From a virus: 64,000 bases of DNA. Position 1 is the first letter of the stretch, and every line of letters begins with the position of its first letter. Shown here one piece after another: positions 15,999 to 49,371 of the stretch. Where the stretch lies: the IMG/VR virus record IMGVR_UViG_3300021425_000005. One strand, 5' to 3'. The translations under genes and the position numbers were made by a program. The notes under the pieces are model-generated. The model was not told where the DNA came from. It did not search any database and saw only the letters and a program-made list of their open reading frames with translations.

Positions 15999-16006
15999 TA
16001 TTTATA
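15999..16006 (-). promoter_or_regulatory. T4 late promoter (gp3)
   Basis: TATAAATA 5 nt before the ATG. Confidence 0.85.
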
Positions 16007-16087: not shown

Positions 16088-17341
16088 TTACATCAGGTTT
16101 GAAACTTTTACTGAACGATAGTATTGGTTTCTGTCAGCTGTAAAGGTGTCAGCATCGGTTGTGCCGTCTGACTGTGTTACGAATGGGTTAGCGATCATGC
16201 CGTAACGAGTCTTAAAGCCGATTTTTGGCTGGAAGGTCGTTGGATCGATTGCGCGAACCTGCTGCAGCGGAACATATGGGCAGTAGAACAAGCCAGCGTC
16301 ATAAGCAGACGAGCCTTTGTAACCTACTACATAGAACTGAGAAGCAGCACCAGTGTTAGCTGAATATGGGTCGATGTATACACGATAGCGACCGTTCAGA
16401 ACACCAGCAAAAGTGTTACCTGTGTCATCGACGTTCAGGTCAGTGTTAAGAGCTGGAGCATAATCCAGAACACCAGCCATTGACAGAGCAGAAGCTACGT
16501 CAGATGAACATACGATGAAGTTACCTTTACCGCGACGGGTGTCTTGAGCGATTACGTTGGCATCACGTTCGATGTTGAACAGGAGACCTTTGAAACGCTC
16601 AACTGACCAGCGACCGTTTGAGTCAACGTCAAGGTCAAATGTGCCAGCAGTAGCAGTAGAAGCAGAACCAGTTTTAGCAACTTTGTAGATAGTTCTGATA
16701 ACTTCACGGTTGATTTCAGCCAGAATTTCCTGAGACAGGATGTTGCTCAATTCAGACTCGGCGTCCAGACCGTGAATTGCTTTCAGGTCTTGAGCCAGTT
16801 CGATTGAGTATTCGGCTTTCAGCGCACGAGTTTTAGCAGTAACAGTGGTTTTCTCGATTGAGAAAGCCATTTCAGCTGGGTCAACACCTTCACCAGTAGC
16901 AGTGGCCATGCCTGTGCCTGTGGTGTAAGAGCCATCAACTGGGTTAGAGCCAGCGTGAGTGCCTGTGCCAGCGAAGTCGGTGTCGGCTTCGTTGAACAGA
17001 GCTTCTGTGCCTGTTTGTGAAGTGTAGTGTGATTTCATCGCGAAGATGAGACCAGTTGGACCAGTCATTGGCTGAACGCCGCAGACATCATAAGCCATCA
17101 GGTTTGGAAGAGCACGACGAACCAGTGAAATCAATACTGGGTCATAGTTGTCAACCGAAGCACCTGTTGCGTTGGCTGGAGCAGCTTCGAAAAGAGCTTG
17201 TTTCTCTTCACGGATTGCTTTCTCTTGGTTTTCCAGAACGACAGCCGTAACATTACGACGGTGAGCGTCCTTGATTTCTGGAAGTTCTGGGTGATCCAAT
17301 ACTGGAGCCCATTTTTCCATTTGTGATTCTGAAAGATACAT
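16088..17341 (-). CDS. gp23: gp23 major capsid protein
   Basis: GVQPMTGPTGLIFAM, ELAQDLKAIHGLDAE, FQPKIGFKTRYG. Confidence 0.99.
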   Translation of the reverse strand: MYLSESQMEKWAPVLDHPELPEIKDAHRRNVTAVVLENQEKAIREEKQALFEAAPANATGASVDNYDPVLISLVRRALPNLMAYDVCGVQPMTGPTGLIFAMKSHYTSQTGTEALFNEADTDFAGTGTHAGSNPVDGSYTTGTGMATATGEGVDPAEMAFSIEKTTVTAKTRALKAEYSIELAQDLKAIHGLDAESELSNILSQEILAEINREVIRTIYKVAKTGSASTATAGTFDLDVDSNGRWSVERFKGLLFNIERDANVIAQDTRRGKGNFIVCSSDVASALSMAGVLDYAPALNTDLNVDDTGNTFAGVLNGRYRVYIDPYSANTGAASQFYVVGYKGSSAYDAGLFYCPYVPLQQVRAIDPTTFQPKIGFKTRYGMIANPFVTQSDGTTDADTFTADRNQYYRSVKVSNLM

Positions 17342-28278: not shown

Positions 28279-29241
28279 TTACCCTGTCATAAAGGTTGGT
28301 GGTAATTCATATCTAATTTGCATTTCCTCTTCGATTGTTGCGATTTCTTGAACAGCCTCACCATAAATTTGATCGCCATTGAGTGTAACACCTCCAGGAA
28401 GTTGGATGCCACCAAACTTCTTCATGTTCTCACCCCATTGGCGTTTGATCAAAGCTGTAGCATATTTCTTCAGCCACATATCATCATAAACTTCAGTGTA
28501 ATCAGTTCCGCTGACAAGAGCATAACCCTCAGCAATTACATAATCTCCGACATCAAATGTTTTATCCATGTCTGTGTCGATATATAATCTGTTGGTCTTA
28601 CGATTGAACCGAACTTGACGATCGGTGACAAACAAACTTTCTAAGACATTCATATGAGTTTTAACCATAGAAAAATATGTCACATCTGCACTTAGAAGAT
28701 TATACATATCATTCAAAGAGAATTGATAATCAACATCAAACAGACCATCTGATTTTGCACCAGCTGTTGCGCCAAATTTGAACATCTTTGTAATACCAAG
28801 AATATTGTCACCAATAGGAACATATCCGTTTTCAAGATCTCCAGGAGTAAAGGCATCAACAGCAGAAGAAGAAGCACTATAACCTGATTCTGCGCCAGTT
28901 AAAGTTTCTGATTCTTGAAAAGTTCCTTTTACATCATCAACAGTAAGAACTGAACCTGATGCTGCTTGTATTTTAGCAGTAGCACCAGATGTCCCACCTG
29001 TAACCTTTTCCCCAACTGTAAAGTTTGAAGCAAAGTTTGCTGAAAGATTCAATGACGAACCTGTGAGTTGGCGTTTAATGTAAACCCTTTCGACACCATC
29101 AAAGTGATACTCTTGCCACATTTGTAATGCGTCATCGATACGATCGCTTATCTGGTCATCGTCTACATTGATTTCGATTACAGGAAATCCCAATCTTCTT
29201 AGGCAGTAATCTATCAAATCTTGTCTAGAGGCTAATGCCAT
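28279..29241 (-). CDS. gp13: gp13 neck protein
   Basis: YCLRRLGFPVIEINVDDDQ, KRQWGENMKKFGGIQLPGGVTLNG. Confidence 0.95.
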   Translation of the reverse strand: MALASRQDLIDYCLRRLGFPVIEINVDDDQISDRIDDALQMWQEYHFDGVERVYIKRQLTGSSLNLSANFASNFTVGEKVTGGTSGATAKIQAASGSVLTVDDVKGTFQESETLTGAESGYSASSSAVDAFTPGDLENGYVPIGDNILGITKMFKFGATAGAKSDGLFDVDYQFSLNDMYNLLSADVTYFSMVKTHMNVLESLFVTDRQVRFNRKTNRLYIDTDMDKTFDVGDYVIAEGYALVSGTDYTEVYDDMWLKKYATALIKRQWGENMKKFGGIQLPGGVTLNGDQIYGEAVQEIATIEEEMQIRYELPPTFMTG

Positions 29242-32082: not shown

Positions 32083-32397
32083 TTAAAATGAGCCACCGTC
32101 AAAAGTAATATCGCCCTCTCTTAGAGCTTCACTTAGTGCATCGTCAATTTGTGTGTCAACAGCTTCTGAAACTTTAGTATCGAGTGAAACAGCGTTCCAT
32201 TTTTCTGTCGTAGCATCATATACGAGTGTTTCGCCAGTAGCAAGACCATCATCACCAACTTCCAAGTTACCGACATTATCTTCAAGTTTGCCGATTTTAA
32301 TCTTAGAAGAAGCTGAAACAGTCGCAACAGATTGAGCCCTTGCGCTAACAACTGTTTTTGCTTTATTACTCGCGTTTGAGTTTACCTTAATCTTCAT
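32083..32397 (-). CDS. Small virion adapter protein
   Basis: TLVYDATTEKW; C-terminal FDGGSF. Confidence 0.65.
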   Translation of the reverse strand: MKIKVNSNASNKAKTVVSARAQSVATVSASSKIKIGKLEDNVGNLEVGDDGLATGETLVYDATTEKWNAVSLDTKVSEAVDTQIDDALSEALREGDITFDGGSF

Positions 32398-32723
32398 TAT
32401 TTCGTTACCTGTGGTGTTACAGTTACAATTCCTTCAACCACACGAAGCGTCTCATCGTTAGAGGCTGCTTCACAATCATACACATAACGACCTGCTTTCA
32501 GAGCACCAGTCTCTGTAGCAGTTAAAGATAATGTTATCTCACCGTCTTCATCCACAGTTGCAACTGTAAAATTGGTTGCTGATGAGCTATAATAGCTCTT
32601 TCTCAGCTGGGCTGTCACTGTATAATCTGTTAAATCTTTCGCGGATCCATCTGCATTAGTCATTGTAATGTCTAGTGAAAATGTTGTTCCTTGATCGATA
32701 ACAATGTTGTTTATGGTAGCCAT
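32397..32723 (-). CDS. Small virion structural protein (Ig-like)
   Basis: IDQGTTF...AQLRKSY...LKAGRYVYD...RVVEGIVTVTP. Confidence 0.75.
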   Translation of the reverse strand: MATINNIVIDQGTTFSLDITMTNADGSAKDLTDYTVTAQLRKSYYSSSATNFTVATVDEDGEITLSLTATETGALKAGRYVYDCEAASNDETLRVVEGIVTVTPQVTK

Positions 32724-32746: not shown

Positions 32747-32754
32747 TATTTATA
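32747..32754 (-). promoter_or_regulatory. T4 late promoter (neck-fibre to gp13 operon)
   Basis: TATAAATA. Confidence 0.85.
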
Positions 32755-32769
32755 AAATAAAGAAACTTC

Positions 32770-32798
32770 TTGACATTGAGCTCAATCATAGGTAATAT
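32770..32798 (+). promoter_or_regulatory. Sigma70-type promoter of the glycosyltransferase operon
   Basis: TTGACA-17bp-TAATAT, 7 nt before ATG 32806. Confidence 0.75.
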
Positions 32799-32805
32799 AT
32801 AGGTT

Positions 32806-33495
32806 ATGAAGACTATAATGATGTTGTTATATGGTGACAAATACGATTATGATGATGTAAATCGTGTGGTTGCAGCAACTACATGTGAATCAACAAGATA
32901 TAATTATCTCCTTTACACAGATAAACCGAAAATGGAGGGTCTATACCCTGAGATTCAGCGTGTCGGAGTAAATTCTGACTGGGGAACTTTCAATAAAGTC
33001 AAGATGTTCGAGCGTTATGACTTGGGTCAATGCTTGTATTTAGATCTAGACATTATCATACAACATCCGAATATTGATTCTTTTTTTGACTGGGGATATA
33101 AAAAACCTGCCATCTGTAAAACTTACTGGAAACCTGAAGGATTTGAGGCTGAACACGGCGGCGGTGATTTCAATTCAAGCGTTATGAGTTGGAATATGTT
33201 CGGTGCTGATGAGATCTACCAACACTTTATGTCTGACCCTGAATATTGGATAACTAAATACAAAGGTCAAGATGACAAATATTTATTTCACGAACATAAA
33301 GATAAGTTTACAACCTACCCTAAAGGGAAGATTTATTCTTATATGTTTGGTATTAACCATGAAACTGATGAGAGTCCACGCGGAAGAAAGTATCGTCCAG
33401 CTTCATCTATCTGTTTATTAAATGGTCAACAACATTTTGATTATGATTTGAGGACTGATTACTATACTCACTTTTCTAACAATAAAATGGGGTGA
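32806..33495 (+). CDS. GT-A-fold glycosyltransferase-like protein
   Basis: YGDKY, LYLDLDIII (DxD), FNSSVMSW, GQDDKYL. Confidence 0.75.
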   Translation: MKTIMMLLYGDKYDYDDVNRVVAATTCESTRYNYLLYTDKPKMEGLYPEIQRVGVNSDWGTFNKVKMFERYDLGQCLYLDLDIIIQHPNIDSFFDWGYKKPAICKTYWKPEGFEAEHGGGDFNSSVMSWNMFGADEIYQHFMSDPEYWITKYKGQDDKYLFHEHKDKFTTYPKGKIYSYMFGINHETDESPRGRKYRPASSICLLNGQQHFDYDLRTDYYTHFSNNKMG

Positions 33496-34852
33496 AAAAT
33501 ACTCTGCCGATTATGTGAATAATCTTTATGGTATGATTGATGCGAACTATGTCAATCAGTTTCGTATGGTATGTTTTACTGACGAGCCAGAAGGTATTCG
33601 CGAACAAGTAGAGATTCACCCTATCCCTGATGTTGAACCGCTGCATCCAAAGTATTGGTTTGGCGAGGAGAACTATTGCTGGGATCGTAGTAAGTTTCTT
33701 TTGTTCAATGCCCAAAAGTGGTTATCCACCGATGGTCCATTTTGTTACTTTGATTTAGACATTGTCATCCAGAATAGCATTGATGAGTTTTATGAACTGG
33801 CATTTCAACCACATATTCTTTATTCGCATTGGCAACCAGAAGGTCAGTTGAAAGAAAGAAGGTTTAGAGATCTCAGGGGAACTTACTTCAACTCTAGTTG
33901 TATGCTTTGGTGGGCAGACCAACCGATAAAAATATACAATGATGTCGTTAATAATCCTGATATTTTCAAAGTGTTCTATAAAGGCTCAGACAACTATCAT
34001 CAATGGCGACGCCCAGCAGGTGGAGAGTTCTGGAACTTTTTACCAAATGACTGGTATTACAGTCACAATTACCAAGAAACTAATTACGATGCTAAACTCG
34101 CCCTCTTTAATCAAAATATGATTGAAGGCGAAGATACGGTTAGTCTTGATGAATGTGAAGATGCCGCTATACTGAATCATTGGTATGGTAAGTATGACAT
34201 GTATAAAGAATTACCGACTCGAGTTGTATTAGAACTCACAAACAAGAGTAATGATACTGACAATAAGTTTAATGATATATTTGTTGAAGATGATGAGTTG
34301 ACATTAGAAGATGTAAAGCGCATATTCAAAGATTACAAACTGGAATATGTTACACTATTAAGAACACTAACCAGCCCTGCTCGTTGCAAGGACTATTATA
34401 AGATTGTAGACTGGTTTGCTGATCGGGGTGCAGAAGTAATAATGCCTTCATTGGAAATCACTGAAGAAAGATATATTGAAGAATTATCAATAGAAGAACC
34501 TTCTCATGACATAACAAGAGAAAACATTGAAACATTCAAACAAACATTTGAATATCGTAACACAGAAAAAGAACAGAAATGGATTATTGATTGTGAGGCA
34601 AGAAATGATAACAGCATATATGTTAATGCTAAAGGACAAGTGTTTCCCTGTTCATATGTTGCTCGGGATGTATTAGAAAACAGATTATATCCTTTGCACC
34701 CGATCGATTACCCCTACAATCCTAAATACAATAACGCTAAGTCTTTTTCATTGAAAGACATTGTATATAATGATGACTTCGAACATTATAATGAAAGTCT
34801 GAAGAAAGACCATTTGAAAATTTGTAAAGTGAAGTGTGGAAGATGCGTGTAA
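33464..34852 (+). CDS. Glycosyltransferase-like domain fused to a degenerate radical-SAM and SPASM/twitch-like domain
   Basis: KWGEKY, FDLDIVI, FNSSCM; LELTNKSND (Cys-less); IDCEA...IYVNAKGQVFPCSY...CKVKCGRC. The conserved N-terminus extends upstream of GTG 33515, implying a non-canonical start near 33464. Confidence 0.7.
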   Translation: MLTFLTIKWGEKYSADYVNNLYGMIDANYVNQFRMVCFTDEPEGIREQVEIHPIPDVEPLHPKYWFGEENYCWDRSKFLLFNAQKWLSTDGPFCYFDLDIVIQNSIDEFYELAFQPHILYSHWQPEGQLKERRFRDLRGTYFNSSCMLWWADQPIKIYNDVVNNPDIFKVFYKGSDNYHQWRRPAGGEFWNFLPNDWYYSHNYQETNYDAKLALFNQNMIEGEDTVSLDECEDAAILNHWYGKYDMYKELPTRVVLELTNKSNDTDNKFNDIFVEDDELTLEDVKRIFKDYKLEYVTLLRTLTSPARCKDYYKIVDWFADRGAEVIMPSLEITEERYIEELSIEEPSHDITRENIETFKQTFEYRNTEKEQKWIIDCEARNDNSIYVNAKGQVFPCSYVARDVLENRLYPLHPIDYPYNPKYNNAKSFSLKDIVYNDDFEHYNESLKKDHLKICKVKCGRCV

Positions 34853-35643
34853 ATTTTGTATGTGCTAAGTGGGGCACGAAATATGGACCACATTTTGTCA
34901 ATCGGTTATGTAACATGGCTCGCCGCCATTGCCCTGATCAGTTTGACTTTCACTTCTATTGTTACACTGACAATAGTGATGGTCTTCAATCTGATATTAA
35001 AGTTATCTCCTTTCCAGATATTCCGAACATTCATCCTAAGTATTGGTTTGGCTTGGATGATTTTAAATACGGAATGGCTCGTTGTTGGGATCGCCCAAAA
35101 ACTTTCGTATTCAACACACATAATTTCGCAGAAGATAAACCTACTGGGCGTTTCGTTTTTCTAGACTTAGACGTTATTATTCAGAACGATCTAACTCCTA
35201 TCATTACATATAATATGGAACAACCTACTAAGATGCGATCTTGGTGGCAGGATCCTGCTCCTATGAATACTCGTCGCTTCAAAGTTTCGCACGGCGCATT
35301 TACCAATGGAAGTTGTCAGGTATGGAGTGATGACCAATGCGAGCCTATCTGGGAAGATGTGTTAAAGTATCAGGATAAGATCTGGTTCACTTATACGGAT
35401 GGCACTGATAATTATCACAGTTGGAGATGGCGTGAGTTGTGGGATTATTTTCCGAGCTGGATGGCATATTCCTACAATCGTGGTCGCTCATGGGACGAAG
35501 ATGATTTGAACGTGGGTATCTATCGAGAGAACTGTATCCTTTGTGTATTTAATGTTGACTTATTGCCCTTTGAAGATGGTTCAAGGGGTAGCACCAAGCA
35601 AGATGATTTAGTCGATCCGAAACTGTTGGAGCATTGGCAATGA
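34843..35643 (+). CDS. GT-A-fold glycosyltransferase-like protein
   Basis: CAKWGTKY, CYTD, FLDLDVII, GTDNY. Confidence 0.75.
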   Translation: MRVNFVCAKWGTKYGPHFVNRLCNMARRHCPDQFDFHFYCYTDNSDGLQSDIKVISFPDIPNIHPKYWFGLDDFKYGMARCWDRPKTFVFNTHNFAEDKPTGRFVFLDLDVIIQNDLTPIITYNMEQPTKMRSWWQDPAPMNTRRFKVSHGAFTNGSCQVWSDDQCEPIWEDVLKYQDKIWFTYTDGTDNYHSWRWRELWDYFPSWMAYSYNRGRSWDEDDLNVGIYRENCILCVFNVDLLPFEDGSRGSTKQDDLVDPKLLEHWQ

Positions 35644-36314
35644 ACATTTACACAGTAAAGTGGGGAACAAAGTATAGTTCAGAATATGTGAATAAGATTG
35701 CATATGATATTGCTGCTGATTTTCCTGAAGCTGACCGCCAAGTATATTGTATCACTGACGATCCTACGGGGTTAGCTGACTTCGTTACACCGATTTTAAT
35801 ACCTGAAGATAATGACCTTGAGAAATGGTGGAACAAAATGTATCTGTTCTCACCACTGGTTGAACAGGAAGGAGAAAAACTTTTCTTTGACCTTGATATT
35901 CTTATTCAACACGACATCACAGCATTTGAAAACTTCGATCCTGAAAACTGTTTGGGTATTGTAAAAACTTGGTGGCACGATCTCGAGCGCATGCGCGAAG
36001 AAACCAAGCATGTTCCGCATAAGTTCAGTGATATTAATTCTAGCGTATTGCGTTGGAATGATTCCTTTGATGGTGCAGAGTTGTGGGAATACTTTACTAA
36101 ATATAAGAAGCAGATTATGTGGCACTATAGAGGAATTGATAACTTCCTCTGCGACAAGCATGTAATACCAATGAAGATATTTCCTCTCGGCTGGGTTTAC
36201 AGTTTCAACCAAGGTTATATCTATCCGCAAGACACCGAGAAGCATGTTTATCGCGAGCTTCCTTATATTTGTTTATTCGACTCTATGGGAAAAGAAGAAG
36301 ATGTTAAAATTTAA
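35640..36314 (+). CDS. GT-A-fold glycosyltransferase-like protein
   Basis: TVKWGTKY, CITDD, WWNKMYLF, FFDLDILI, INSSVLRW, GIDNFL. Confidence 0.78.
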   Translation: MNIYTVKWGTKYSSEYVNKIAYDIAADFPEADRQVYCITDDPTGLADFVTPILIPEDNDLEKWWNKMYLFSPLVEQEGEKLFFDLDILIQHDITAFENFDPENCLGIVKTWWHDLERMREETKHVPHKFSDINSSVLRWNDSFDGAELWEYFTKYKKQIMWHYRGIDNFLCDKHVIPMKIFPLGWVYSFNQGYIYPQDTEKHVYRELPYICLFDSMGKEEDVKI

Positions 36315-37005
36315 TCAAGCCTTAATGACACTAGGTCAGATGATGATGATTCCAGCTTTTTGGTTTTTGCTTACACACGAACACAATTTGTATGGTCTTA
36401 TAAGTGCATTTGTATTGAGCTATCTATTTGGCGGTATCGGATTTGCTGTGAGTGCTCACCGATACTTTACACATAGATCGTTTAAAGTATCACCTATGAA
36501 AGAGAAGATTTTATCAGTGTTTACTGTCCTCGGGACTTGGCTAAGTCCAGCCGAATGGGCGTTTACTCATTGGCATCACCATAAACATTCAGACACAGAA
36601 CAAGATGTGCACAGTTCTAAACATCTAGGTATAAAGAATTGGTTTTTTTATTTCCATAGAACAGATGGTGTTGAACCAACACACACGGTAGCCAGATTAA
36701 TGACAAAAAAATGGCATAAGTTCTTGTATGCATATAAGCATGTTATTATACTTACATACGCTGCAATTACATTTATGTTGGGATATCAATGGTTCTTCTA
36801 CTTGTTTATTATACCGACTGCATATTCTTTTTTCTCACAAATTGTAACAGTAAATAATCATGTAAATGGTGAGCCAAAAGATAGTTGGATACAAAACATT
36901 TTAACATTCGGTGAGGGTTATCATGCACATCACCACAAATACCCTAAAGATTATGAGAAAGGCTTTTTCATAAAAGCTGCAGTGGATATTATAAAAGATG
37001 CTTAA
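36301..37005 (+). CDS. Membrane fatty-acid desaturase (delta-9-like)
   Basis: His boxes HRYFTH, HWHHHKHSD and GEGYHAHHH; hydrophobic segments; likely start MLKFNQ at 36301. Confidence 0.88.
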   Translation: MLKFNQALMTLGQMMMIPAFWFLLTHEHNLYGLISAFVLSYLFGGIGFAVSAHRYFTHRSFKVSPMKEKILSVFTVLGTWLSPAEWAFTHWHHHKHSDTEQDVHSSKHLGIKNWFFYFHRTDGVEPTHTVARLMTKKWHKFLYAYKHVIILTYAAITFMLGYQWFFYLFIIPTAYSFFSQIVTVNNHVNGEPKDSWIQNILTFGEGYHAHHHKYPKDYEKGFFIKAAVDIIKDA

Positions 37006-37666
37006 ATCAAATTTTCTAAAAAACTACAAGTTTTGGGGCGAGGCTCTCTATTTTATTGAGAAAAAAGCACCCCATAAACTCTCAGATTTAAGACAATGTT
37101 TTGAAGCTAATCACGTAGAAGCAGCTGAATGGCTTGTTACTGAATTGCAAAAGAATATTGATAATTGCGCAAGACAAGAGAAGTTAAAAGTTCTTGTTCT
37201 CAACTCTTGGCTTGGTATCCCACTTGTCCCTCTGTTGTCCGAGAACATCGATATTGGAGAAATTCATTTAGTCGATCTTGACAAAGAGTCATTGGATTTA
37301 TCCAAACTTTTTCACAAACACTATTCTCAAGAAAGATTTATCAAGATGAGGCATCATTGTCTTGATATACCATTCGCATTCGAAGAATTAAATAAGATTG
37401 ACGCCGATATTGTAATCGCAATTAACACTGAACAAATGTATCCATTGGCTGAGTTAGAAACTCGTAACCCAATGGCATTATTCGCTTGTCAGAATAGTAA
37501 TGTAATTGAAGAAATGTATGGTATTAACTGTGTTAATTCGATCGAAGATCTTAAAAAACAGATAGGTTTAGATGAAACATATTATGAGGGTCAGATTGAA
37601 CAAACTTATTACTCTTGGGATGGTCAAAAGAAATACGATCGTTATATGGTAATCGGATCTAAGTAA
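36998..37666 (+). CDS. Class I SAM-dependent methyltransferase-like protein (degenerate motif I)
   Basis: KVLVLNSWLG, IHLVDLD, INTEQM, RYMVIG. Confidence 0.55.
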   Translation: MLKSNFLKNYKFWGEALYFIEKKAPHKLSDLRQCFEANHVEAAEWLVTELQKNIDNCARQEKLKVLVLNSWLGIPLVPLLSENIDIGEIHLVDLDKESLDLSKLFHKHYSQERFIKMRHHCLDIPFAFEELNKIDADIVIAINTEQMYPLAELETRNPMALFACQNSNVIEEMYGINCVNSIEDLKKQIGLDETYYEGQIEQTYYSWDGQKKYDRYMVIGSK

Positions 37667-38267
37667 TATCCTCAATCATCATTTTCCACATATCTTCGTC
37701 TGGAATAACAAACCCCAATGTAATTCTTGGACCACCACCAGCACAATGCCAATATGGATTATCTTGTCCGCCATAGTAACCAACTTTGGCTGACCAACCC
37801 TTCCAATCTGGTAATGTTGTAATTATTTCTCCGTCCCAATATTGAAAATACCCATCCCCTGTATTATAATTCAAAAGAATATTATATCCAGGAACATCCC
37901 AGTTATTGTGCCAACCCATGTATCCATCTTCAGGATAATACACATGAACAGCACTTTGTCTTGCACCAAGAAACTTTACTAACTCATCATTGAATCTAGC
38001 CGACTCATCTTTAAACTTTTGTGGACATCTGCTTCCTGGACCAAAGTGAGCATTCCTAATAACTTCAGGTGGACCAGCGTGTTCACCTTCTTTTCTTCCC
38101 ATAGGTTTAGTGAGCATCTCTTGTAGATAGCCATATGACTGCGAGTGTTCTCTATCAGAATCACCGCGCTGATCAATATACAGCTCAGACAAATCTTGAT
38201 CAAAAAACCAATCACTATGTTGGTTTAGAATTTCAAGAATCTCATCATTTAGATCGATAAATCTCAC
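37659..38267 (-). CDS. 2OG-Fe(II) oxygenase-like (cupin/DSBH) protein
   Basis: YYPEDGYMGWHNN...WHCAG...RITLGF (HxN...H...R). Confidence 0.6.
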   Translation of the reverse strand: MRFIDLNDEILEILNQHSDWFFDQDLSELYIDQRGDSDREHSQSYGYLQEMLTKPMGRKEGEHAGPPEVIRNAHFGPGSRCPQKFKDESARFNDELVKFLGARQSAVHVYYPEDGYMGWHNNWDVPGYNILLNYNTGDGYFQYWDGEIITTLPDWKGWSAKVGYYGGQDNPYWHCAGGGPRITLGFVIPDEDMWKMMIEDIT

Positions 38268-38961
38268 TTACTCTTACTTTCTCTTTTGGTATTGTATAGT
38301 GAAAAACTACAGTTTCTGTATCTTGAAGTTCATCGCTTTTATAACCACAAACAAAGTTCCACCTTGCGTCAGGTTGCGGGAATTCCCCAACCTTTAAATC
38401 AAAGTTACCATTATTTAGTAGGTTCCACATAGTAAATGTATCCCATTTGCGAACCTCCTCGGGATATGGAGTCGGATCCCAAGAAGGTGATTGTTGCTCA
38501 ATATACCAATCATACCAACTATCCATGAGTTGTTTGGTTGTAGAGGTTTTATATAGGAACAATCCACAATGATAAATCATTTCTTCAGTTTCTGATAGCT
38601 TTGTTATTTTTGCATTATAGGGGCGGTTTCTTGTGAACAAGATATCGTTGTCCCCCAGCAAATCAAAAACAGTTGAAATATCTTCATGTTCTATCATTGT
38701 GTCGCAATCGAGATACAAAGTCACATCATACGGTGACTTCGATAATGCCCAGAGTTTGGCTCTTATATGAATGGGAACATCATCTGTTATAATATTCTCA
38801 AAAATATCCCGAGCATCATCATCAACCCAATCATCATGAGTAAACAAAGTTATTTTTGCTTCGGGATAAAAGTCCAGTAGAGACTGTGCTGATGTTTTGG
38901 CTGCTTCAAAAAATGCTTTATTTACTGAAGCAACATAAACATAACCATTATTCTGTGTCAT
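38245..38961 (-). CDS. GT8-like nucleotide-diphospho-sugar transferase
   Basis: GYVYVA, SPYDVTLYLDCDT, WDTFTMW, VFHYT. Confidence 0.75.
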   Translation of the reverse strand: MTQNNGYVYVASVNKAFFEAAKTSAQSLLDFYPEAKITLFTHDDWVDDDARDIFENIITDDVPIHIRAKLWALSKSPYDVTLYLDCDTMIEHEDISTVFDLLGDNDILFTRNRPYNAKITKLSETEEMIYHCGLFLYKTSTTKQLMDSWYDWYIEQQSPSWDPTPYPEEVRKWDTFTMWNLLNNGNFDLKVGEFPQPDARWNFVCGYKSDELQDTETVVFHYTIPKEKVRVSEIYRSK

Positions 38962-39385
38962 CTGCCAATGCTTCCTGAATTAGCAGGGTTGCATAGGCAT
39001 GAACTTCGATCGGCGTTTTAGATTTTCTCAAACGCTTTTTAAGTTCTCTGTTTTGTGATTGTTTGATTTCTTCGATCTCAAAGGCTTCGAGTTTCATATT
39101 AAAAAGGATTTCTTGTTTATGTCTAGCTTGATCAGCTAAAGCTCTTTCCTTATCAATCTTTTCTTGTTCAGCTCGTTCAGCTTTGTGTTCTTCAGTTAGG
39201 CGATTAATTTCTTCTTCGCCATACATTTCTAACACAGCATCAAAATCAGGGTTGACACCATCGGCTGCTACAATATGCGCTACAGCATATTCTCCGTTAC
39301 CTTGAAGCATACGGCAAACAATATGATTATTAGACTTATCCTGCCAAATCGGATCTTTGTATTTCGGAAGGGTTTCTTCGGACAT
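38948..39385 (-). CDS. Hypothetical protein, possible fibre-assembly chaperone
   Basis: 145 aa with a charged coiled-coil C-half, directly after the fibre genes; the function is inferred. Confidence 0.6.
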   Translation of the reverse strand: MSEETLPKYKDPIWQDKSNNHIVCRMLQGNGEYAVAHIVAADGVNPDFDAVLEMYGEEEINRLTEEHKAERAEQEKIDKERALADQARHKQEILFNMKLEAFEIEEIKQSQNRELKKRLRKSKTPIEVHAYATLLIQEALADDTE

Positions 39386-39421
39386 TATATAAACTCCATA
39401 ATATAAAATAATGTATAGTAT

Positions 39422-40501
39422 TTAGGCGATACGAACGAACAGTTTTTTCGACTCTTGTGTTGAAGATGTTGAGATGACAGTCACGCCATTATAATAACCA
39501 ACATAGCTACCAGAATATGAACCAGTATAGTTACCAGTATAAGATCCAGAATATGTGCCAGAATAGTTACCAGTGTAAGATGGTCCAAGAAAACCAGAAT
39601 ATGATGGACGATATGTCCCTGCATATGTCCCAGTATAGTTACCAGTATAAGAACCTGCATATGTCCCAGAATAAGAACCTGTGTATGTTCCAGCGTAGGC
39701 ATATGTGGCTGTATTTTTAAGCTGATCAGTGAGTGTTTCACCCATCTGTTGCCAAGTGCCAGTTCCAGGAGCAGCTGTATCAACAACATATTTGCCGATA
39801 TTGTTGGCAGCAATACGGTTGCGGAAACGACCTTCTAAATCTTCAATAAACGCATCCGTATATTCTTTAAAAGAAGTGAAATTAGCAGTATTAACAAGTG
39901 TTCTGTTTGTTGTAGTTGAGGGAACAGTTGTTGCAGCTGTCTTTTGCCAAAGAGTTTTAGTCACATCTGTGCCATCAACCTGCGTATCTGTAATAGTTCC
40001 TCTTGCTGTCCAAGTTCCACCTGAGGGTGCTGAACCAGAAAGATAGTATTGACCACAAGTATTTGCATCTTGATCAACCATTGCTTTAATACAAGGATCA
40101 ATTACTTCTGAATCAATTTGAGCATCAGTTGATTCACTTAAATCACTATCAACTGATCCAGTGCTAGCAGTTCTAACTGGGCGAACAGTTTTACCATCAG
40201 TAGCAGTAGCAGTTCCTTGTGAGAATGTATAAACTGTGGATGAAAAATCATTAGGGTCTACTGGGTGTGTTCCCACAGCATTATTCATTTCACGGTTTGT
40301 AAATGTGCCGATTGATGTGAAGTTTGCTGGTGCACCAGATGTTCCAACTTGTAAAGAACCAACAGAAGTTGTTTGTGCAAATTTAGTTGTAAGTTTATTT
40401 GCAGTGTAATTTTTAATTTCTGCATCTGTAAGCTCTTGAAGACCAACAGCACCATTGGCAAGTGTTTCGCTTGGAGCTTTAATTTTTACTGGACCAGCCA
40501 T
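39422..40501 (-). CDS. Putative virion fibre-module protein with a C-terminal (Y-x-G-x)n repeat
   Basis: Thr/Ser/Gly-rich; in the late baseplate-fibre operon; 18 period-4 units near the C-terminus. Confidence 0.75.
   Translation of the reverse strand: MAGPVKIKAPSETLANGAVGLQELTDAEIKNYTANKLTTKFAQTTSVGSLQVGTSGAPANFTSIGTFTNREMNNAVGTHPVDPNDFSSTVYTFSQGTATATDGKTVRPVRTASTGSVDSDLSESTDAQIDSEVIDPCIKAMVDQDANTCGQYYLSGSAPSGGTWTARGTITDTQVDGTDVTKTLWQKTAATTVPSTTTNRTLVNTANFTSFKEYTDAFIEDLEGRFRNRIAANNIGKYVVDTAAPGTGTWQQMGETLTDQLKNTATYAYAGTYTGSYSGTYAGSYTGNYTGTYAGTYRPSYSGFLGPSYTGNYSGTYSGSYTGNYTGSYSGSYVGYYNGVTVISTSSTQESKKLFVRIA
39486..39704 (-). repeat. Degenerate 12-bp tandem repeat encoding YxGx tetrapeptides
   Basis: Plus-strand units such as accagtatagtt, accagtataaga and tccagaatatgt. 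Confidence 0.9.
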
Positions 40502-40512
40502 GTATTTTCACC

Positions 40513-41556
40513 TTAATTGAGTAGAGTGCCACTTGAATTGTATATTGCGATCGGACGTTGGATTTCCCAGTCAGTAGAATTTGAACATACTAGAATCATT
40601 GATGAACGAGCAGCCAATGTTTTCGCGGCGTTAGCTGAACCACCATCAATTGTATCAGAAGTATTTGGATATACTTTAATATTGGCTGAAGTGTTATTGT
40701 AAATTTCAACTTTAAGACCAGCAACAGCAGATTTCAGTTTAACACCTTGGTTAGAGGAGGCAGTTGTCACTACATTGACAGTTTCAGTAAGAGCAACGGC
40801 GTCGCCTTGTGTCGAACCAGCAGCTGTAATTGAAGCAGTAATGCCATATTTCAGATCGCCTGAAAGTGTTGTGGTTCCAGTAACGCTCAAGTCACCAGCA
40901 GTGGTAATGTCACCGTCAGTTCCAACTGTGAAATTTGAACCATTCACATCAATACCACCATCAAGAGAAGAGAGGCTATCTACAGTTAATGTTCCAGAAG
41001 TGTCGATATTACCTGAAGTGTTAGCGACAGTAAATGCACCATCAACATCAATACCGCCATCAAGGGAAGCAAGACCAGATGCGTCAATAGTTGTAGCAAC
41101 TACGGCATCGCCTTCGTCAGTTGATTGCCACTGAGTAGCAGACACAGCAACGAAGTCACGACCCTTTTCTGGACCAAGCGACAAAGCAGCATTGGCACTA
41201 AGGTCATTGATTGATTCGTTGGTGTATGGATAAATTTTAATCGTAGCAGTCGTTGAGTTAAAGATTGTAACCCTTGTGCCAGCCGAAGCGTCAGGGAGTT
41301 GAACACCTTGGTTTGTTGTAGCAGTATTTACGATATTGTAAGTTTTTGTGAGGACTGTAGCAGTTCCTTGCGTAGTGCCAGCAGCAGTAACAGAGGCATC
41401 AACACCAACGATAAAACGACCCGATACCGTAATATCATCAACGGTGATGTCATCTCCACTCTCAAACTTATCTGTATTGAGGTTTGTGAAGTTTGTGTCC
41501 ACCTCAGTGTTAGTGAGTGGAGAGCCTTTACCTGAACGAGTTGTAAGTGTTGACAT
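40513..41556 (-). CDS. Tail fibre protein with a duplicated domain
   Basis: N-terminal RSGKGSPLTNTEVDTNFTNLN anchor; two copies of AAGxTQG...NQGVxL...IKxYP; two SLDGGIDV repeats. Confidence 0.8.
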   Translation of the reverse strand: MSTLTTRSGKGSPLTNTEVDTNFTNLNTDKFESGDDITVDDITVSGRFIVGVDASVTAAGTTQGTATVLTKTYNIVNTATTNQGVQLPDASAGTRVTIFNSTTATIKIYPYTNESINDLSANAALSLGPEKGRDFVAVSATQWQSTDEGDAVVATTIDASGLASLDGGIDVDGAFTVANTSGNIDTSGTLTVDSLSSLDGGIDVNGSNFTVGTDGDITTAGDLSVTGTTTLSGDLKYGITASITAAGSTQGDAVALTETVNVVTTASSNQGVKLKSAVAGLKVEIYNNTSANIKVYPNTSDTIDGGSANAAKTLAARSSMILVCSNSTDWEIQRPIAIYNSSGTLLN

Positions 41557-41561
41557 TTTTC

Positions 41562-41765
41562 TTACCTATTCTTTAGAATTACTTGCAGGGCTTCTTTTAT
41601 ATCAGCCAAGTCTTGTTTTAAACTATTTATATCATCACAAACTTCATCAATCTTTCTGGATTGATTTTTTTTCGCTTTATATGCTGCTAAACCAGAATAA
41701 TCAGTGCTGATCAGTGCATTCGTAGCATCATCTCTTTTATATTTATCTGTAAAAAACTCACTCAT
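41562..41765 (-). CDS. Small hypothetical protein
   Basis: 67 aa with a coiled-coil C-terminus, after the DUF4815-like gene; contains a TATAAATA at 41624-41631. Confidence 0.7.
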   Translation of the reverse strand: MSEFFTDKYKRDDATNALISTDYSGLAAYKAKKNQSRKIDEVCDDINSLKQDLADIKEALQVILKNR

Positions 41766-47766: not shown

Positions 47767-49371
47767 TTAAAAATTGAATACCACTTTGAGAGTTTCTACC
47801 TGATTTTCATCCCGCGTAATAGGTCGGCGGTTGTCAATATATAAAATCTCACCAGAGTGATTGCTTATTTCTGGATCTGTTACTGTATTTATAGTGATTC
47901 CTGTGTCGCCTGTCGTAACATTTGTAAAAGTTGACGAAACATTGATTCCTGGAAACTTCTCAAGTAAATATACTGTATCTATATTTCCGTCACCAGAAGC
48001 GTCAATCTTCTGAATTACCGAGAACTCTCCGCCGTCATCAGTTGTCAACTTATCATCAAGATTAAACTTAGATGCATCAGCTGTATCGATTGTCACGACA
48101 TGACATGGAGTTCCAACAGCACTTGTGAAAGTTGCAGACTCATCATATGTATGCATATTCTTGATGAATCCAACTTGTCTGAACTCGTTACCAACAATGA
48201 CATCTGCATCATCACTTGTAAACGATACTGTAACACCAACATTTTTAGCGAATAGTTCTCTTGGAGGATTACCGCCGTGACCCGAAACAGGAGAAACAAC
48301 AGGTCTCAATACAGCACCAGTTCCGTTACCAACAGTTTGTTGTATTTCTAGTTCAACAAATGTATAACCTTGACCTGGATCTGTAACTTGAATGTCAGTA
48401 ATTGTGCCAGCTTCGTTTACAGTAGCTGAAGCTGTGGCGTTGGTTCCGTCGCCCTTCACATTGATGACAATGTCTCCTTCAACATAGTCAACACCTCCTG
48501 ATGTAACAACAATTCTATCTAGAGTTCCACTCACCGCCGCTGCTTCAACAGCAGACTGGAGACTAGGAGTTTCAGTAGAACCCAAAGAGGCTGTAGCTGT
48601 AGCACCTGAACCGCCACCGCCTGTTAATTTAACAAAAGCGAATGAATATCCACGACCTTCGCTGGTGATTGTTATAGAATCGACTTCTCCAGCTGTAACA
48701 GAGGCAGTAGCGACAGCACCAGTTCCATCACCTTCGATAACTACGGTAGGTGCTGATGTATATCCAGAACCACCTGCTGTAACAGTAATAGAGTCTAATT
48801 CACCATTAACATCAAAGGCTGGATTACCAGCACCAGCAACTTTTCTTACAGGAATAAAATCATCATTCAGAAACTTAGTTCTGTCAGCCGAGCCAACTTG
48901 AAACATAAACTTCCAAATATAACCATCATCAAGTTCAAAGGTATCTGTAGCAGTTGAAGTTGGTTTGATAGTGCTTTGAGAGTTATTATTATTATCTAAG
49001 CATTTATAGACATTAAACTCATCAGTAATCACATAAAACTTTGCGTCTGCTAGATTAGTAGCACCAGAAAATGCAGGATGATTATCGGCGTATTCATCAT
49101 CATACTGATCATAAACAGTTCCTGATTCCCAATCATATCTTGGTGCAAGTGTAACGACATCAGAAGCCTGAATACGCTTCACAAAAAGCATATCGTGACG
49201 ATATTGTGCTTGATAATATTGTGAATCTCGTGGGGTTTCAGGTGTAGTGTCATCTTCCCATGCGCGTGCACGGGATGCGAAGACATAAAAGAAATCATTC
49301 TCATTATAGATGTCTCTATAAAAAGAACGAGCGTTTTCTACTCTAGCAGCTTCTCTTAGTAGCAAAGTCAT
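47767..49371 (-). CDS. gp8: gp8 baseplate wedge subunit (extended)
   Basis: RYDWESGTVYDQY, FYVITDEFNVYKCLDN, DGYIWKFM, SGEILYIDNR. Confidence 0.9.
   Translation of the reverse strand: MTLLLREAARVENARSFYRDIYNENDFFYVFASRARAWEDDTTPETPRDSQYYQAQYRHDMLFVKRIQASDVVTLAPRYDWESGTVYDQYDDEYADNHPAFSGATNLADAKFYVITDEFNVYKCLDNNNNSQSTIKPTSTATDTFELDDGYIWKFMFQVGSADRTKFLNDDFIPVRKVAGAGNPAFDVNGELDSITVTAGGSGYTSAPTVVIEGDGTGAVATASVTAGEVDSITITSEGRGYSFAFVKLTGGGGSGATATASLGSTETPSLQSAVEAAAVSGTLDRIVVTSGGVDYVEGDIVINVKGDGTNATASATVNEAGTITDIQVTDPGQGYTFVELEIQQTVGNGTGAVLRPVVSPVSGHGGNPPRELFAKNVGVTVSFTSDDADVIVGNEFRQVGFIKNMHTYDESATFTSAVGTPCHVVTIDTADASKFNLDDKLTTDDGGEFSVIQKIDASGDGNIDTVYLLEKFPGINVSSTFTNVTTGDTGITINTVTDPEISNHSGEILYIDNRRPITRDENQVETLKVVFNF
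47886..47893 (-). promoter_or_regulatory. T4 late promoter inside the gp8 3' end
   Basis: TATAAATA about 130 bp upstream of the DUF4815-like gene. Confidence 0.55.

Follow-up and report, generated by a model that had tools for sequence, protein, structure and literature searches.

We analyzed a gene island in a 64,000-nucleotide stretch of viral DNA (IMG/VR record IMGVR_UViG_3300021425_000005; the whole stretch is hereafter called the window) in which a protein with YxGx repeats lies beside predicted glycosyltransferases (GTs) and other putative tailoring enzymes, a set that an earlier note on this DNA had proposed to modify a virion protein. The structural genes of the window mark it as part of a marine T4-like myovirus. 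The major capsid protein (MCP; 16088-17341, minus strand) shares 67% identity with its counterpart in Pelagibacter phage HTVC008M and 62-64% with cyanomyovirus capsids, and the island is flanked by genes for the portal, sheath, terminase, neck, and baseplate. A gp8-like wedge gene (47767-49371) and a neck protein gene (28279-29241) lie on either side, placing the island between the baseplate genes (VrlC/gp8 side) and the neck genes, which is where the host recognition cluster (HRC) of pelagimyophages is located.

The island consists of two convergent operons whose open reading frames (ORFs) lie where the earlier note had placed them. The plus-strand arm carries four GT genes (GTa-GTd, 32806-36314), a desaturase gene, and a methyltransferase-like gene (MT), and the minus-strand arm carries, in the order previously claimed, a fiber-like gene (fib347) followed by the YxGx gene, a gene for a 145-aa protein (p145), a GT8-like gene, and a putative oxygenase gene (Oxy). 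The MT and Oxy arms overlap tail to tail by 8 bp (37659-37666), and a 108-aa gene (32397-32723) lies beyond the GTa end. The enzyme set that had been claimed was mostly right, with five predicted soluble GT-A enzymes, an S-adenosylmethionine (SAM)-methyltransferase-fold-like protein, and a desaturase, the last of these being the only island enzyme with a transmembrane-like segment. A Pfam scan of the island detected no flippase, polymerase, or polyprenyl-phosphate transferase, and no membrane components of the Gtr or Wzx/Wzy type; comparison of the whole island with 50,697 phage records by megablast and blastn returned zero matches.

Results

A late gene quartet is conserved in two phage clades

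Five scans of IMG/VR, using as queries the YxGx protein, an alignment of its family, the GT family, the GT8 homolog of Phage C48C1, and a long YxGx variant, yielded ~310 loci. Gene contexts were taken from IMG/VR loci only, co-occurrence was counted over loci with distinct GT8 sequences, and the loci found via the GTc or C48C1 GT8 query served as unbiased tests of YxGx presence. The loci fell into a clade that includes the window (clade 1) and a sister clade (clade 2) that comprises Phage C48C1 (OQ984149.1, Kyanoviridae) and 59 distinct IMG/VR loci.

In clade 1, one strand reads gp8, a 1996-aa protein, p67, fib347, YxGx, p145, GT8, and Oxy, and the opposite, converging strand reads MT, GTd, GTc, GTb, and GTa, after which come the 108-aa gene and the next fiber gene. 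This order was the same in every locus with sufficient contig reach, only small inserts differing, and the block was strictly syntenic in ~190 distinct loci, unlike a hypervariable HRC. The YxGx gene was located upstream of GT8 in 105/105 clade-1 and 47/47 clade-2 (C48C1-like) loci, with p145 between the two in 103/105 and 47/47 loci, respectively, and Oxy was downstream of GT8 in 124/124 and 57/57 loci. The co-occurrence across genomes that the earlier note had called for checking was thus found for YxGx with the GT8-like and Oxy genes, with no exception in ~150 distinct loci from two divergent clades. However, MT and the four-GT cassette were present in 67/67 clade-1 loci and in 0/46 clade-2 loci that keep YxGx, p145, GT8, and Oxy, so the two convergent operons are not the one indivisible system that had been envisaged. 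Since clade 2 keeps the quartet without the four GTs and MT, the late YxGx/p145/GT8/Oxy quartet is the conserved unit, and in one clade the cassette has been inserted between Oxy and the 108-aa gene.

In Phage C48C1, the place of the YxGx gene is taken by a gene for a giant 3,347-aa protein (L167:3415-13458) in which numerous separate [YF]xGx hairpin arrays are combined with the C-terminal strand also found in the window YxGx protein. It is followed by homologs of p145 (45% identity, C-terminal 100 residues), GT8 (37%), Oxy (26%), and the 108-aa gene (40%). In the other clade-2 loci (L168-L247), 1-13 YxGx-type tblastn matches in a row, spanning up to ~8.5 kb, were seen upstream, an arrangement comparable to that of C48C1.

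The island genes differ widely in their conservation. GTc orthologs are 73-95% identical (median 76-91%), compared to 87-92% for the MCP. In the distant half of clade 1, where the capsid protein is 87% identical, median identities are 76% for GTc, 56% for GT8, 55% for MT, 54% for gp8, 44% for Oxy, 42% for YxGx, and 37% for GTa. Oxy is encoded on the cassette strand in three loci (L105, L107, and L111).

The small inserts cluster at two places. In L043 (L043:12781-13967) through L045, an alternative oxidase gene of the PTOX type (PF01786, E 2e-72) and a 2OG-FeII_Oxy_5 gene follow Oxy, and the gap between GTd and GTc takes the same 2OG-FeII_Oxy_5 gene or a DUF6071 gene in ten loci (L050, L051, L056, L058, L062, L067, L068, L070, L072, and L073). 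The convergence point and the GTd/GTc gap are therefore insertion hot spots for auxiliary genes.

Transcription signals differ between the two operons

The motif TATAAATA occurs 14 times in the window compared to 3.8 copies expected, and 12 of these copies are on the minus (structural) strand. Minus-strand copies lie directly upstream of genes (e.g., at 15999, 17377, 18598, 24454, 49888/49900, and 55602), and the copies fit T4-type late promoters. One of them (41624-41631, minus strand) precedes fib347, YxGx, p145, GT8, and Oxy, which overlap in series and form one late unit behind it. Another (32747-32754, minus strand) is located 24 nt before the 108-aa gene, a position kept in most relatives that have both flanking genes. 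No copy of TATAAATA was found on the plus strand of the island.

The sigma70 promoter that had been reported for the plus-strand operon is present as a sigma70-like motif, TTGACA-17 nt-TAATAT (32770-32798, plus strand), that matches 10/12 consensus positions and lies 7 nt before the GTa ATG, although it is conserved in near relatives only. TTGAC[AT] and a -10 box are found at the same place in L002, L009/11, L014, and L021/28, with differing spacers. No such boxes were found in distant loci because the intergenic space there, just 17-55 bp, is too short.

The YxGx protein is predicted to combine a beta-prism with a long hairpin

The YxGx gene (39422-40501, minus strand) belongs to a family with 971 database matches, whose members are conserved over an N-terminal part of ~260 residues and in a C-terminal strand, with a [YF]xGx array between them; the repeats occupy residues ~265-340 of the window protein, and repeat number and array length vary ~tenfold across the family. 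In an AlphaFold2 (AF2) model with a mean predicted local distance difference test score (pLDDT) of 84, the protein has a well-defined beta-rich domain, and the repeat is modeled as one antiparallel hairpin in which residues 257-297 pair with 309-357 around a Pro/Gly-containing center (pLDDT 62-67). Although a Foldseek search of the model against the PDB and BFVD gave no match at E <= 1e-3, exhaustive comparison with VIA-align ranked four domains of one kind far above background: the C-terminal domains of Photorhabdus Plu-MACPF (Z 8.2; root-mean-square deviation 3.1 over 113 aligned residues) and Mp2Ba1 (Z 8.1), the MVB12B MABP domain (Z 6.8), and perforin-2 P2 (Z 6.0). The next unrelated row scored 3.3. 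Residues ~46-260 together with the C-terminal strand may thus form an MABP-type beta-prism, an assignment that is borderline both because of the Foldseek result and because the Z scores are borderline for this aligner.

The earlier note had called this product a fiber protein. The model contains no recognizable fiber fold, and the predicted structure is better described as a prism with a needle. Its genomic position suggests that the YxGx protein is a host-contact part of the virion. A tblastn search with YxGx against the 50,697 phage records found no match at 1e-5, and the C48C1 relative appeared only in an unfiltered (low-complexity) local search.

Repeat composition differs between the clades. 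In the clade-1 repeat, Ser+Thr make up 56% and charged residues 3% of the x positions, and Tyr accounts for 85% of the aromatic position, whereas the clade-2 repeat has 11% Ser+Thr at the x positions, where Val/Ala and Asn/Asp dominate, and 47% Phe at the aromatic position. Because 47% of the aromatic residues in the sister clade are Phe, the Tyr hydroxyl is not the conserved feature. In two loci (L012 and L014), YxGx shares only 41-42% identity with that of the window and the flanking genes 70-95%, a pattern indicative of an exchange of YxGx alleles by recombination, as would be expected for a host-range determinant. Eight loci (L139, L145-L148, L154, L162, and L163) carry two or three tandem YxGx-family genes upstream of p145, a paralog expansion.

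The first gene of the late unit, fib347 (40513-41556, minus strand), encodes a 347-aa fiber-like protein with an internal duplication and a weak match to the Bactofilin beta-helix; it is syntenic in all clade-1 loci.

The GT8-like, Oxy, and p145 proteins of the late unit

The GT8-like gene (38245-38961, minus strand) encodes a 238-aa predicted GT-A glycosyltransferase. While the window copy scores 16.3 bits against PF01501, under the cut-off of 24.3, 15 of 30 orthologs match this family (best E 5.6e-6), 13 match DUF1647, and nine match Nucleotid_trans. D85-x-D87 and many polar residues are invariant in the 30 orthologs. A profile search against PDB sequences gave nothing usable. The GT8-like call made previously thus receives weak but consistent support.

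Oxy (37659-38267, minus strand) is a 202-aa protein that probably adopts a double-stranded beta-helix (DSBH) fold. Seven residues (Y111, W119, H120, N122, W158, H174, and R181) are invariant across 62 diverse homologs. Within the pattern H120-x-N122...H174...R181, Asn122 replaces the acidic ligand of the HxD/E...H facial triad, and the invariant R181, with a nearly invariant T183, lies 7 residues past H174; in 2OG-Fe(II) oxygenases, the basic residue (RxS/T) for the C5 carboxylate of 2-oxoglutarate (2OG) is placed ~10 residues past the distal His. The pattern reads like the H-x-D...H...R-x-S/T layout of DSBH oxygenases, though with Asn for the acidic ligand. The 2OG-Fe(II)-like label that it had been given is not verified, given the H-x-N...H pattern and the lack of database matches: Oxy had no Pfam or PDB match, including none to PF05118 or PF13640, and alignment of its family with a small 2OG-FeII_Oxy_5 alignment by hhalign gave a probability of 0.1. 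Genes of the PF13640 and PF05118 families were sought in the relatives as references, and too few sequences for alignments were found. Feature-based comparison in the Atlas gave clusters named as viral Asp/Asn beta-hydroxylases (0.92) and 2OG-FeII_Oxy_3 (0.88-0.90), which serve as leads only.

The Oxy family is large (964 representative clusters) and is not confined to the fiber context. In Phage C48C1, Oxy-family matches also occur outside the structural module (L083:14980-15654 and L083:27053-27592). One of them (E 9e-16) has the replicative helicase gene on one side and a NifU-like gene on the other, and a second, marginal one (E 0.18) is located farther along this stretch.

Between YxGx and GT8, p145 (38948-39385, minus strand) encodes a coiled-coil-rich protein of 145 aa with no family match in Pfam or PHROGs, and it may serve the YxGx protein as a chaperone or assembly factor.

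The cassette encodes a predicted new family of GT-A glycosyltransferases

The four plus-strand GT genes are paralogs with a mutual identity of 24-34%, a common N-terminal KWGxKY, and an invariant D-L-D in an alignment of the four. GTc (34834-35643) encodes a protein of 269 aa and is the most conserved gene of the module; its D111-L112-D113, which corresponds to the DxD motif for metal and nucleotide-sugar binding, is invariant across 52 sequences and is kept in all four paralogs. The AF2 model of GTc (pLDDT 86.5; predicted template modeling score 0.88; multiple-sequence alignment of 52 homologs) shows the single Rossmann-like alpha/beta/alpha nucleotide-sugar-binding domain that defines the GT-A fold. 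Foldseek found 271 matches to this model in the PDB at E <= 1e-3, and the best 50 of the 271 are all GT-A enzymes. These fold neighbors include alpha-1,3-GalT, LgtC, the catalytic domain of UGGT, LARGE1, and glycogenin (E 1e-7 to 1e-5, template modeling score ~0.5), with a sequence identity to GTc of 7-14%.

At the sequence level, the four paralogs had no Pfam, NCBIfam, or PDB sequence match, including when a four-paralog profile was compared with PDB sequences, and a tblastn search with GTc against the 50,697 phage records gave no match at 1e-5. The sole family match among the four is that of GTa to PHROG 1962 ("glycosyltransferase", E 5e-7). The 106 database relatives of the four-paralog family are all unnamed metagenomic proteins. 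Since they have the predicted GT-A fold and the DxD motif but match no family model, GTa-GTd appear to be a new GT-A glycosyltransferase family that is GT8-like in fold but does not belong to GT8 (PF01501) by sequence. GTa (32806-33495, plus strand, 229 aa) is the least conserved paralog, being 23-79% identical to its orthologs, and has a weak homolog in Pelagibacter phage Mosig, inside a non-structural GT/methyltransferase/sulfotransferase cluster. GTd (35634-36314, plus strand) encodes a paralog of 226 aa.

GTb (33464-34852, plus strand) combines a GT-A domain with a C-terminal half that resembles SPASM. This half scores 20.8 bits against PF13186 (E 4.7e-4), just under the cut-off of 21.5, and its SPASM-like Cys pattern is kept in relatives. 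The radical-SAM motif CxxxCxxC is absent, the corresponding segment lacking cysteine in both the window copy and a 912-aa relative. Thus, the four KWGxKY/DLD GT-like genes of the earlier note are indeed four GT-A paralogs, while the Fe-S domain attributed to one of them falls under the SPASM cut-off and lacks CxxxCxxC. The C-terminal half of GTb is best described as a probable radical-SAM relic, making GTb a GT fused to what appears to be a dead radical-SAM/SPASM module. In the distant half of the clade, GTb is 912 aa long (L043:16774-19512, minus strand; orthologs in L045, L046, L051, L053, L059, L061, L066, L067, L070, L073, and L082) and consists of the GT-A domain, a duplicated helical module of ~200 residues, a cysteine-less radical-SAM-like segment, and a SPASM-like Cys cluster; this version has no Pfam match.

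The start of GTb also required correction. The ORF first listed begins at GTG 33515, but within the stretch 33449-33517 the KWGEKY motif and the beta-1 strand are encoded upstream of this codon, overlapping the end of GTa. GTb starts with ATG ATG in distant relatives, and the window subclade has ACT ATA or ACT ATT at the homologous codons. The ATA of the window, at 33464, is 9 nt downstream of GAGGA and is the probable start. Five of nine near relatives lack any ATG, GTG, or TTG in this stretch, and the want of a canonical start for the conserved N-terminus suggests that translation begins at AUA or AUU. A +1 frameshift that fuses GTa to GTb at TTT-T was also considered and is less likely, because the beta-1 strand upstream of TTT-T is kept in the GTb frame and is codon-aligned with the ATG-started relatives. 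An intron or insertion in GTc, which long tblastn matches had prompted us to consider, was rejected, the extra length being the adjacent paralog GTb.

The MT and desaturase genes

MT (36998-37666, plus strand) encodes a 222-aa protein resembling the class-I SAM-methyltransferase fold. Among its orthologs, 25/27 match Spermine_synth (best E 6e-4) and 14/27 match Methyltransf_12, so that the methyltransferase-like call made earlier has weak but consistent backing. Motif I reads LNSWLG rather than GxGxG, and an MT profile had no match among PDB sequences.

The desaturase gene (36244-37005, plus strand; probable start 36301) encodes a membrane protein of the fatty-acid-desaturase family. Its match to PF00487 (FA_desaturase; E 2e-11, 44.6 bits) passes the cut-off of 29.7, in agreement with the earlier call, its translation contains the His boxes HxxxxH, HxxHH, and HxxHH, and it gave a weak match to NCBIfam, the only one obtained from that database. 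Found in the window and in L002, L006, L009, and L011 only, the desaturase gene is a sporadic insertion between GTd and MT. Both of its junctions overlap the neighboring genes, and its probable start, MLKFN (36301), resembles that of MT, MLKSN (36998). Its sole cultured-phage relative is a gene of Pelagibacter phage Mosig (25% identity).

Discussion

Modification of a virion protein is the best reading of the island, and we hold it at slightly less than even confidence. It builds on gene identities at the fold or family level, synteny, co-occurrence, promoter motifs, and the solubility of the enzymes, from which we infer the substrate, the chemistry, the timing, and the status of YxGx as a virion protein. 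The case is better for the late GT8/Oxy pair than for the cassette. Because a late, translationally coupled quartet is kept in two lineages in which the enzymes are only 26-37% identical, the best explanation for its retention is that GT8 and Oxy act on the hairpin protein or assemble with it. That the cassette acts on the same glycoprotein is favored by its position, the conservation of GTc, the lack of lipid-carrier genes, the Ser/Thr-rich repeat, and the strand mobility of Oxy. The capsid-like conservation of GTc in genomes where gp8 drops to 54% identity points to a conserved rather than a strain-variable acceptor, and the presence of Oxy on the cassette strand in three loci indicates that the two operons are linked. 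The mycobacteriophages, as summarized in PMC11256854 (citing Freeman et al. 2023), provide a precedent for phage-encoded glycosylation of virions.

We propose that the fib347/YxGx/p145/GT8/Oxy unit, whose core quartet is fixed in two clades, would supply both the substrate and its first modifying enzymes. The YxGx prism would carry the long, fast-evolving, length-variable Tyr/Gly hairpin, most likely as an exposed host-contact element of the baseplate or fiber apparatus, and p145 would be the chaperone of YxGx. Late in infection, the soluble GT8-like enzyme and the hydroxylase-like Oxy would modify YxGx, or an adjacent fiber, in the cytoplasm before assembly. The second unit, an add-on of the window clade with its own early-type promoter, four soluble GT-A paralogs, and the SAM-methyltransferase-fold-like protein, would extend and methylate the same glycan stepwise. 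We propose that this build-up would take place on the acceptor itself, given the absence of lipid-carrier machinery. The most explicit version, in which an AspH-like hydroxylase, a GT8-like initiator, the four GT-A enzymes, and a sugar methyltransferase assemble a methylated oligosaccharide on the side of the hairpin that displays Ser/Thr/Tyr (or hydroxy-Asn), is a tentative possibility that we would not call probable.

Several observations weigh against modification of a virion protein. The molecule modified could be another virion protein, or a host molecule, rather than YxGx. Co-occurrence is confounded by vertical inheritance, which reduces the sample to two independent lineages, and the contrast in repeat composition likewise has n=2. 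The YxGx allele swaps in L012 and L014 were accompanied by no visible jumps of the enzymes and thus gave no signal of co-evolution. Phe replaces Tyr in 47% of sister-clade units, and surfaces rich in Tyr, Ser, and Gly bind well unmodified. The cassette has an early-type promoter and is dispensable in the sister clade, its junctions also gather host-directed auxiliary genes (the desaturase, PTOX, and 2OG-FeII_Oxy_5), and the weak GTa homolog of phage Mosig resides in a non-structural GT/methyltransferase/sulfotransferase cluster. The Oxy family, with its 964 clusters, is also found in the replication region of C48C1.

The early-type promoter, the absence of the cassette from the sister clade, and the distant Mosig relative of GTa would also suit modification of the host envelope, in which the soluble GT-A enzymes, above all those of the cassette, would act at the cytoplasmic face to glycosylate the core of host lipopolysaccharide (LPS) or lipooligosaccharide (LOS) or a different envelope glycan. 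The effect would be to block superinfection or to keep progeny from adsorbing to debris, and modification of the O-chain was the function favored by Zaragoza-Solas et al. 2020 (PMC7029224) for GT8-rich sets of GTs between VrlC and gp14. Neighbors such as the lipid desaturase and PTOX-type auxiliary genes, and the presence of LgtC-type LOS transferases among the best fold matches of GTc, also fit this explanation. However, the block is not hypervariable but strictly syntenic; GTc shows the conservation of a capsid protein, whereas the surface glycans of marine hosts vary by strain; and GT8 and Oxy, which are coupled in translation to late structural genes, come after YxGx in two clades. Together with the lack of Gtr-type or Wzx/Wzy-type membrane components, these features make envelope modification rather unlikely in our judgment. 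We consider it improbable that p145, the GT8-like protein, and Oxy serve assembly or structure without chemistry, as chaperones, lectin-like factors, or minor virion parts that bind host glycans, with their adjacency reflecting the order of assembly. Dedicated chaperones commonly follow phage fiber genes, Oxy is without the canonical HxD/E triad, and the window copies of the GT8-like protein and Oxy reach no Pfam cut-off, but the DxD and polar residues that are invariant in 30 GT8-like orthologs and the His, Asn, His, and Arg that are invariant in 62 Oxy homologs point to active sites.

A methyltransferase, an oxygenase-like protein, and GTs resemble the TET-type hypermodification clusters that convert 5-methylcytosine (5mC) to 5-hydroxymethylcytosine (5hmC) and then to glycosyl-5hmC, and the early-type promoter of the cassette would be compatible with the building of glycosylated bases on phage DNA. 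We regard this as very unlikely. MT lacks C5-methyltransferase motifs by inspection, its nearest models being Spermine_synth and Methyltransf_12; Oxy, with ~200 aa and H-x-N, is unlike TET/JBP; and a hydroxymethylase of the thymidylate-synthase family (PF00303) was not found in three relatives that are 83-91% complete. Moreover, GT8 and Oxy are late genes amid fiber genes, and the GTs have the GT-A fold, whereas the DNA glucosyltransferases of T4 are GT-B enzymes. There is also little likelihood, in our view, that the cassette acts on some other cytoplasmic acceptor, namely a small molecule, lipid, or peptide that the dead radical-SAM/SPASM part of GTb would recognize. The fusion of a SPASM-like module to a GT, the extra helical repeats of the 912-aa GTb version in distant relatives, and the occasional insertion of a desaturase would fit such a role, but the block contains no conserved genes for precursor peptides, lipid synthesis, or export, and its position inside the structural module is fixed.

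If a virion protein is modified, the closest functional parallel would be that of mycobacteriophages Che8, Corndog, and Myrna, in which, according to the summary in PMC11256854 (citing Freeman et al. 2023, Cell Host Microbe), soluble GTs encoded by the phage are likewise proposed to decorate its structural proteins while these are still in the cytoplasm and unassembled. In those phages of Actinobacteria, the same summary places the glycans, detected by mass spectrometry, on capsid and tail-tube proteins, whereas for the system described here the modification is predicted. It also differs in that it belongs to a marine T4-like myovirus, has a hairpin protein of the tail region as its candidate target, uses a previously undescribed GT-A family, and has hydroxylase-like and methyltransferase-like proteins attached. 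In genomic setting, the island resembles the host recognition cluster of pelagimyophages and cyanomyophages (PMC7029224), which also lies between baseplate and neck and has GT8-like enzymes among fiber genes. That cluster has been described as hypervariable and read as modifying host LPS, whereas the block here is syntenic and tied to one protein family. Among cultured pelagi- and cyanophages, tblastn found no GTc or YxGx homolog, the exception being the C48C1 YxGx protein from the unfiltered local search.

The individual proteins have parallels of their own. GTc shares its fold and DxD motif with the retaining GT-A families GT6, GT8, and GT24, while the N-terminal KWGxKY is peculiar to the new family; of the fold neighbors, glycogenin and UGGT act on protein substrates. 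The predicted fold of the N-terminal ~260 residues of YxGx is shared with the MABP domains of MVB12B, Plu-MACPF, Mp2Ba1, and perforin-2/MPEG1 P2, which bind membranes, and the P2 domain of perforin-2 likewise projects an extended beta-hairpin. However, YxGx is 4-12% identical to these domains in sequence, is encoded in a phage tail module without a MACPF domain, and has a hairpin of ~2 x 40 residues with a strict [YF]xGx period and ~tenfold length variation. A hydroxylase and a glycosyltransferase also act together on repeat proteins in collagen LH3/PLOD3 and mimivirus L230, where the counterpart here would be a putative DSBH-like protein and a GT-A enzyme encoded together beside a repeat protein, although the YxGx repeat is without Lys or Pro. 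The missing acidic ligand of Oxy recalls AspH, an Asp/Asn beta-hydroxylase with a two-His iron site; in clade 2, one position of the repeat is dominated by Asn/Asp.

We found no description of the GT-A family, the prism-plus-hairpin protein, or the fixed quartet in Pfam, PHROGs, NCBIfam, or the literature that we searched. Whatever the substrate, the island defines a GT-A family without Pfam or CAZy assignment and a family of putative phage structural proteins with a predicted MABP-like prism and a Tyr/Gly hairpin, and the natural contrast between a clade with and a clade without the four-GT cassette makes the question testable without phage culture. Until now, GT sets encoded in the tail region of abundant marine T4-like phages have been interpreted as a means of altering the host surface. 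If these enzymes instead modify the virion, then virion glycosylation, which is known from mycobacteriophages and giant viruses, would extend to a widespread group of marine phages. Should the multi-step pathway hold true, T4-like phages of marine Gram-negative hosts would gain their first virion glycosylation system, with the sister clade providing a natural minimal version (GT8 and Oxy). Such modification would matter for adsorption and host range, for the stability of the particles, and for marine grazing or immune-like recognition.

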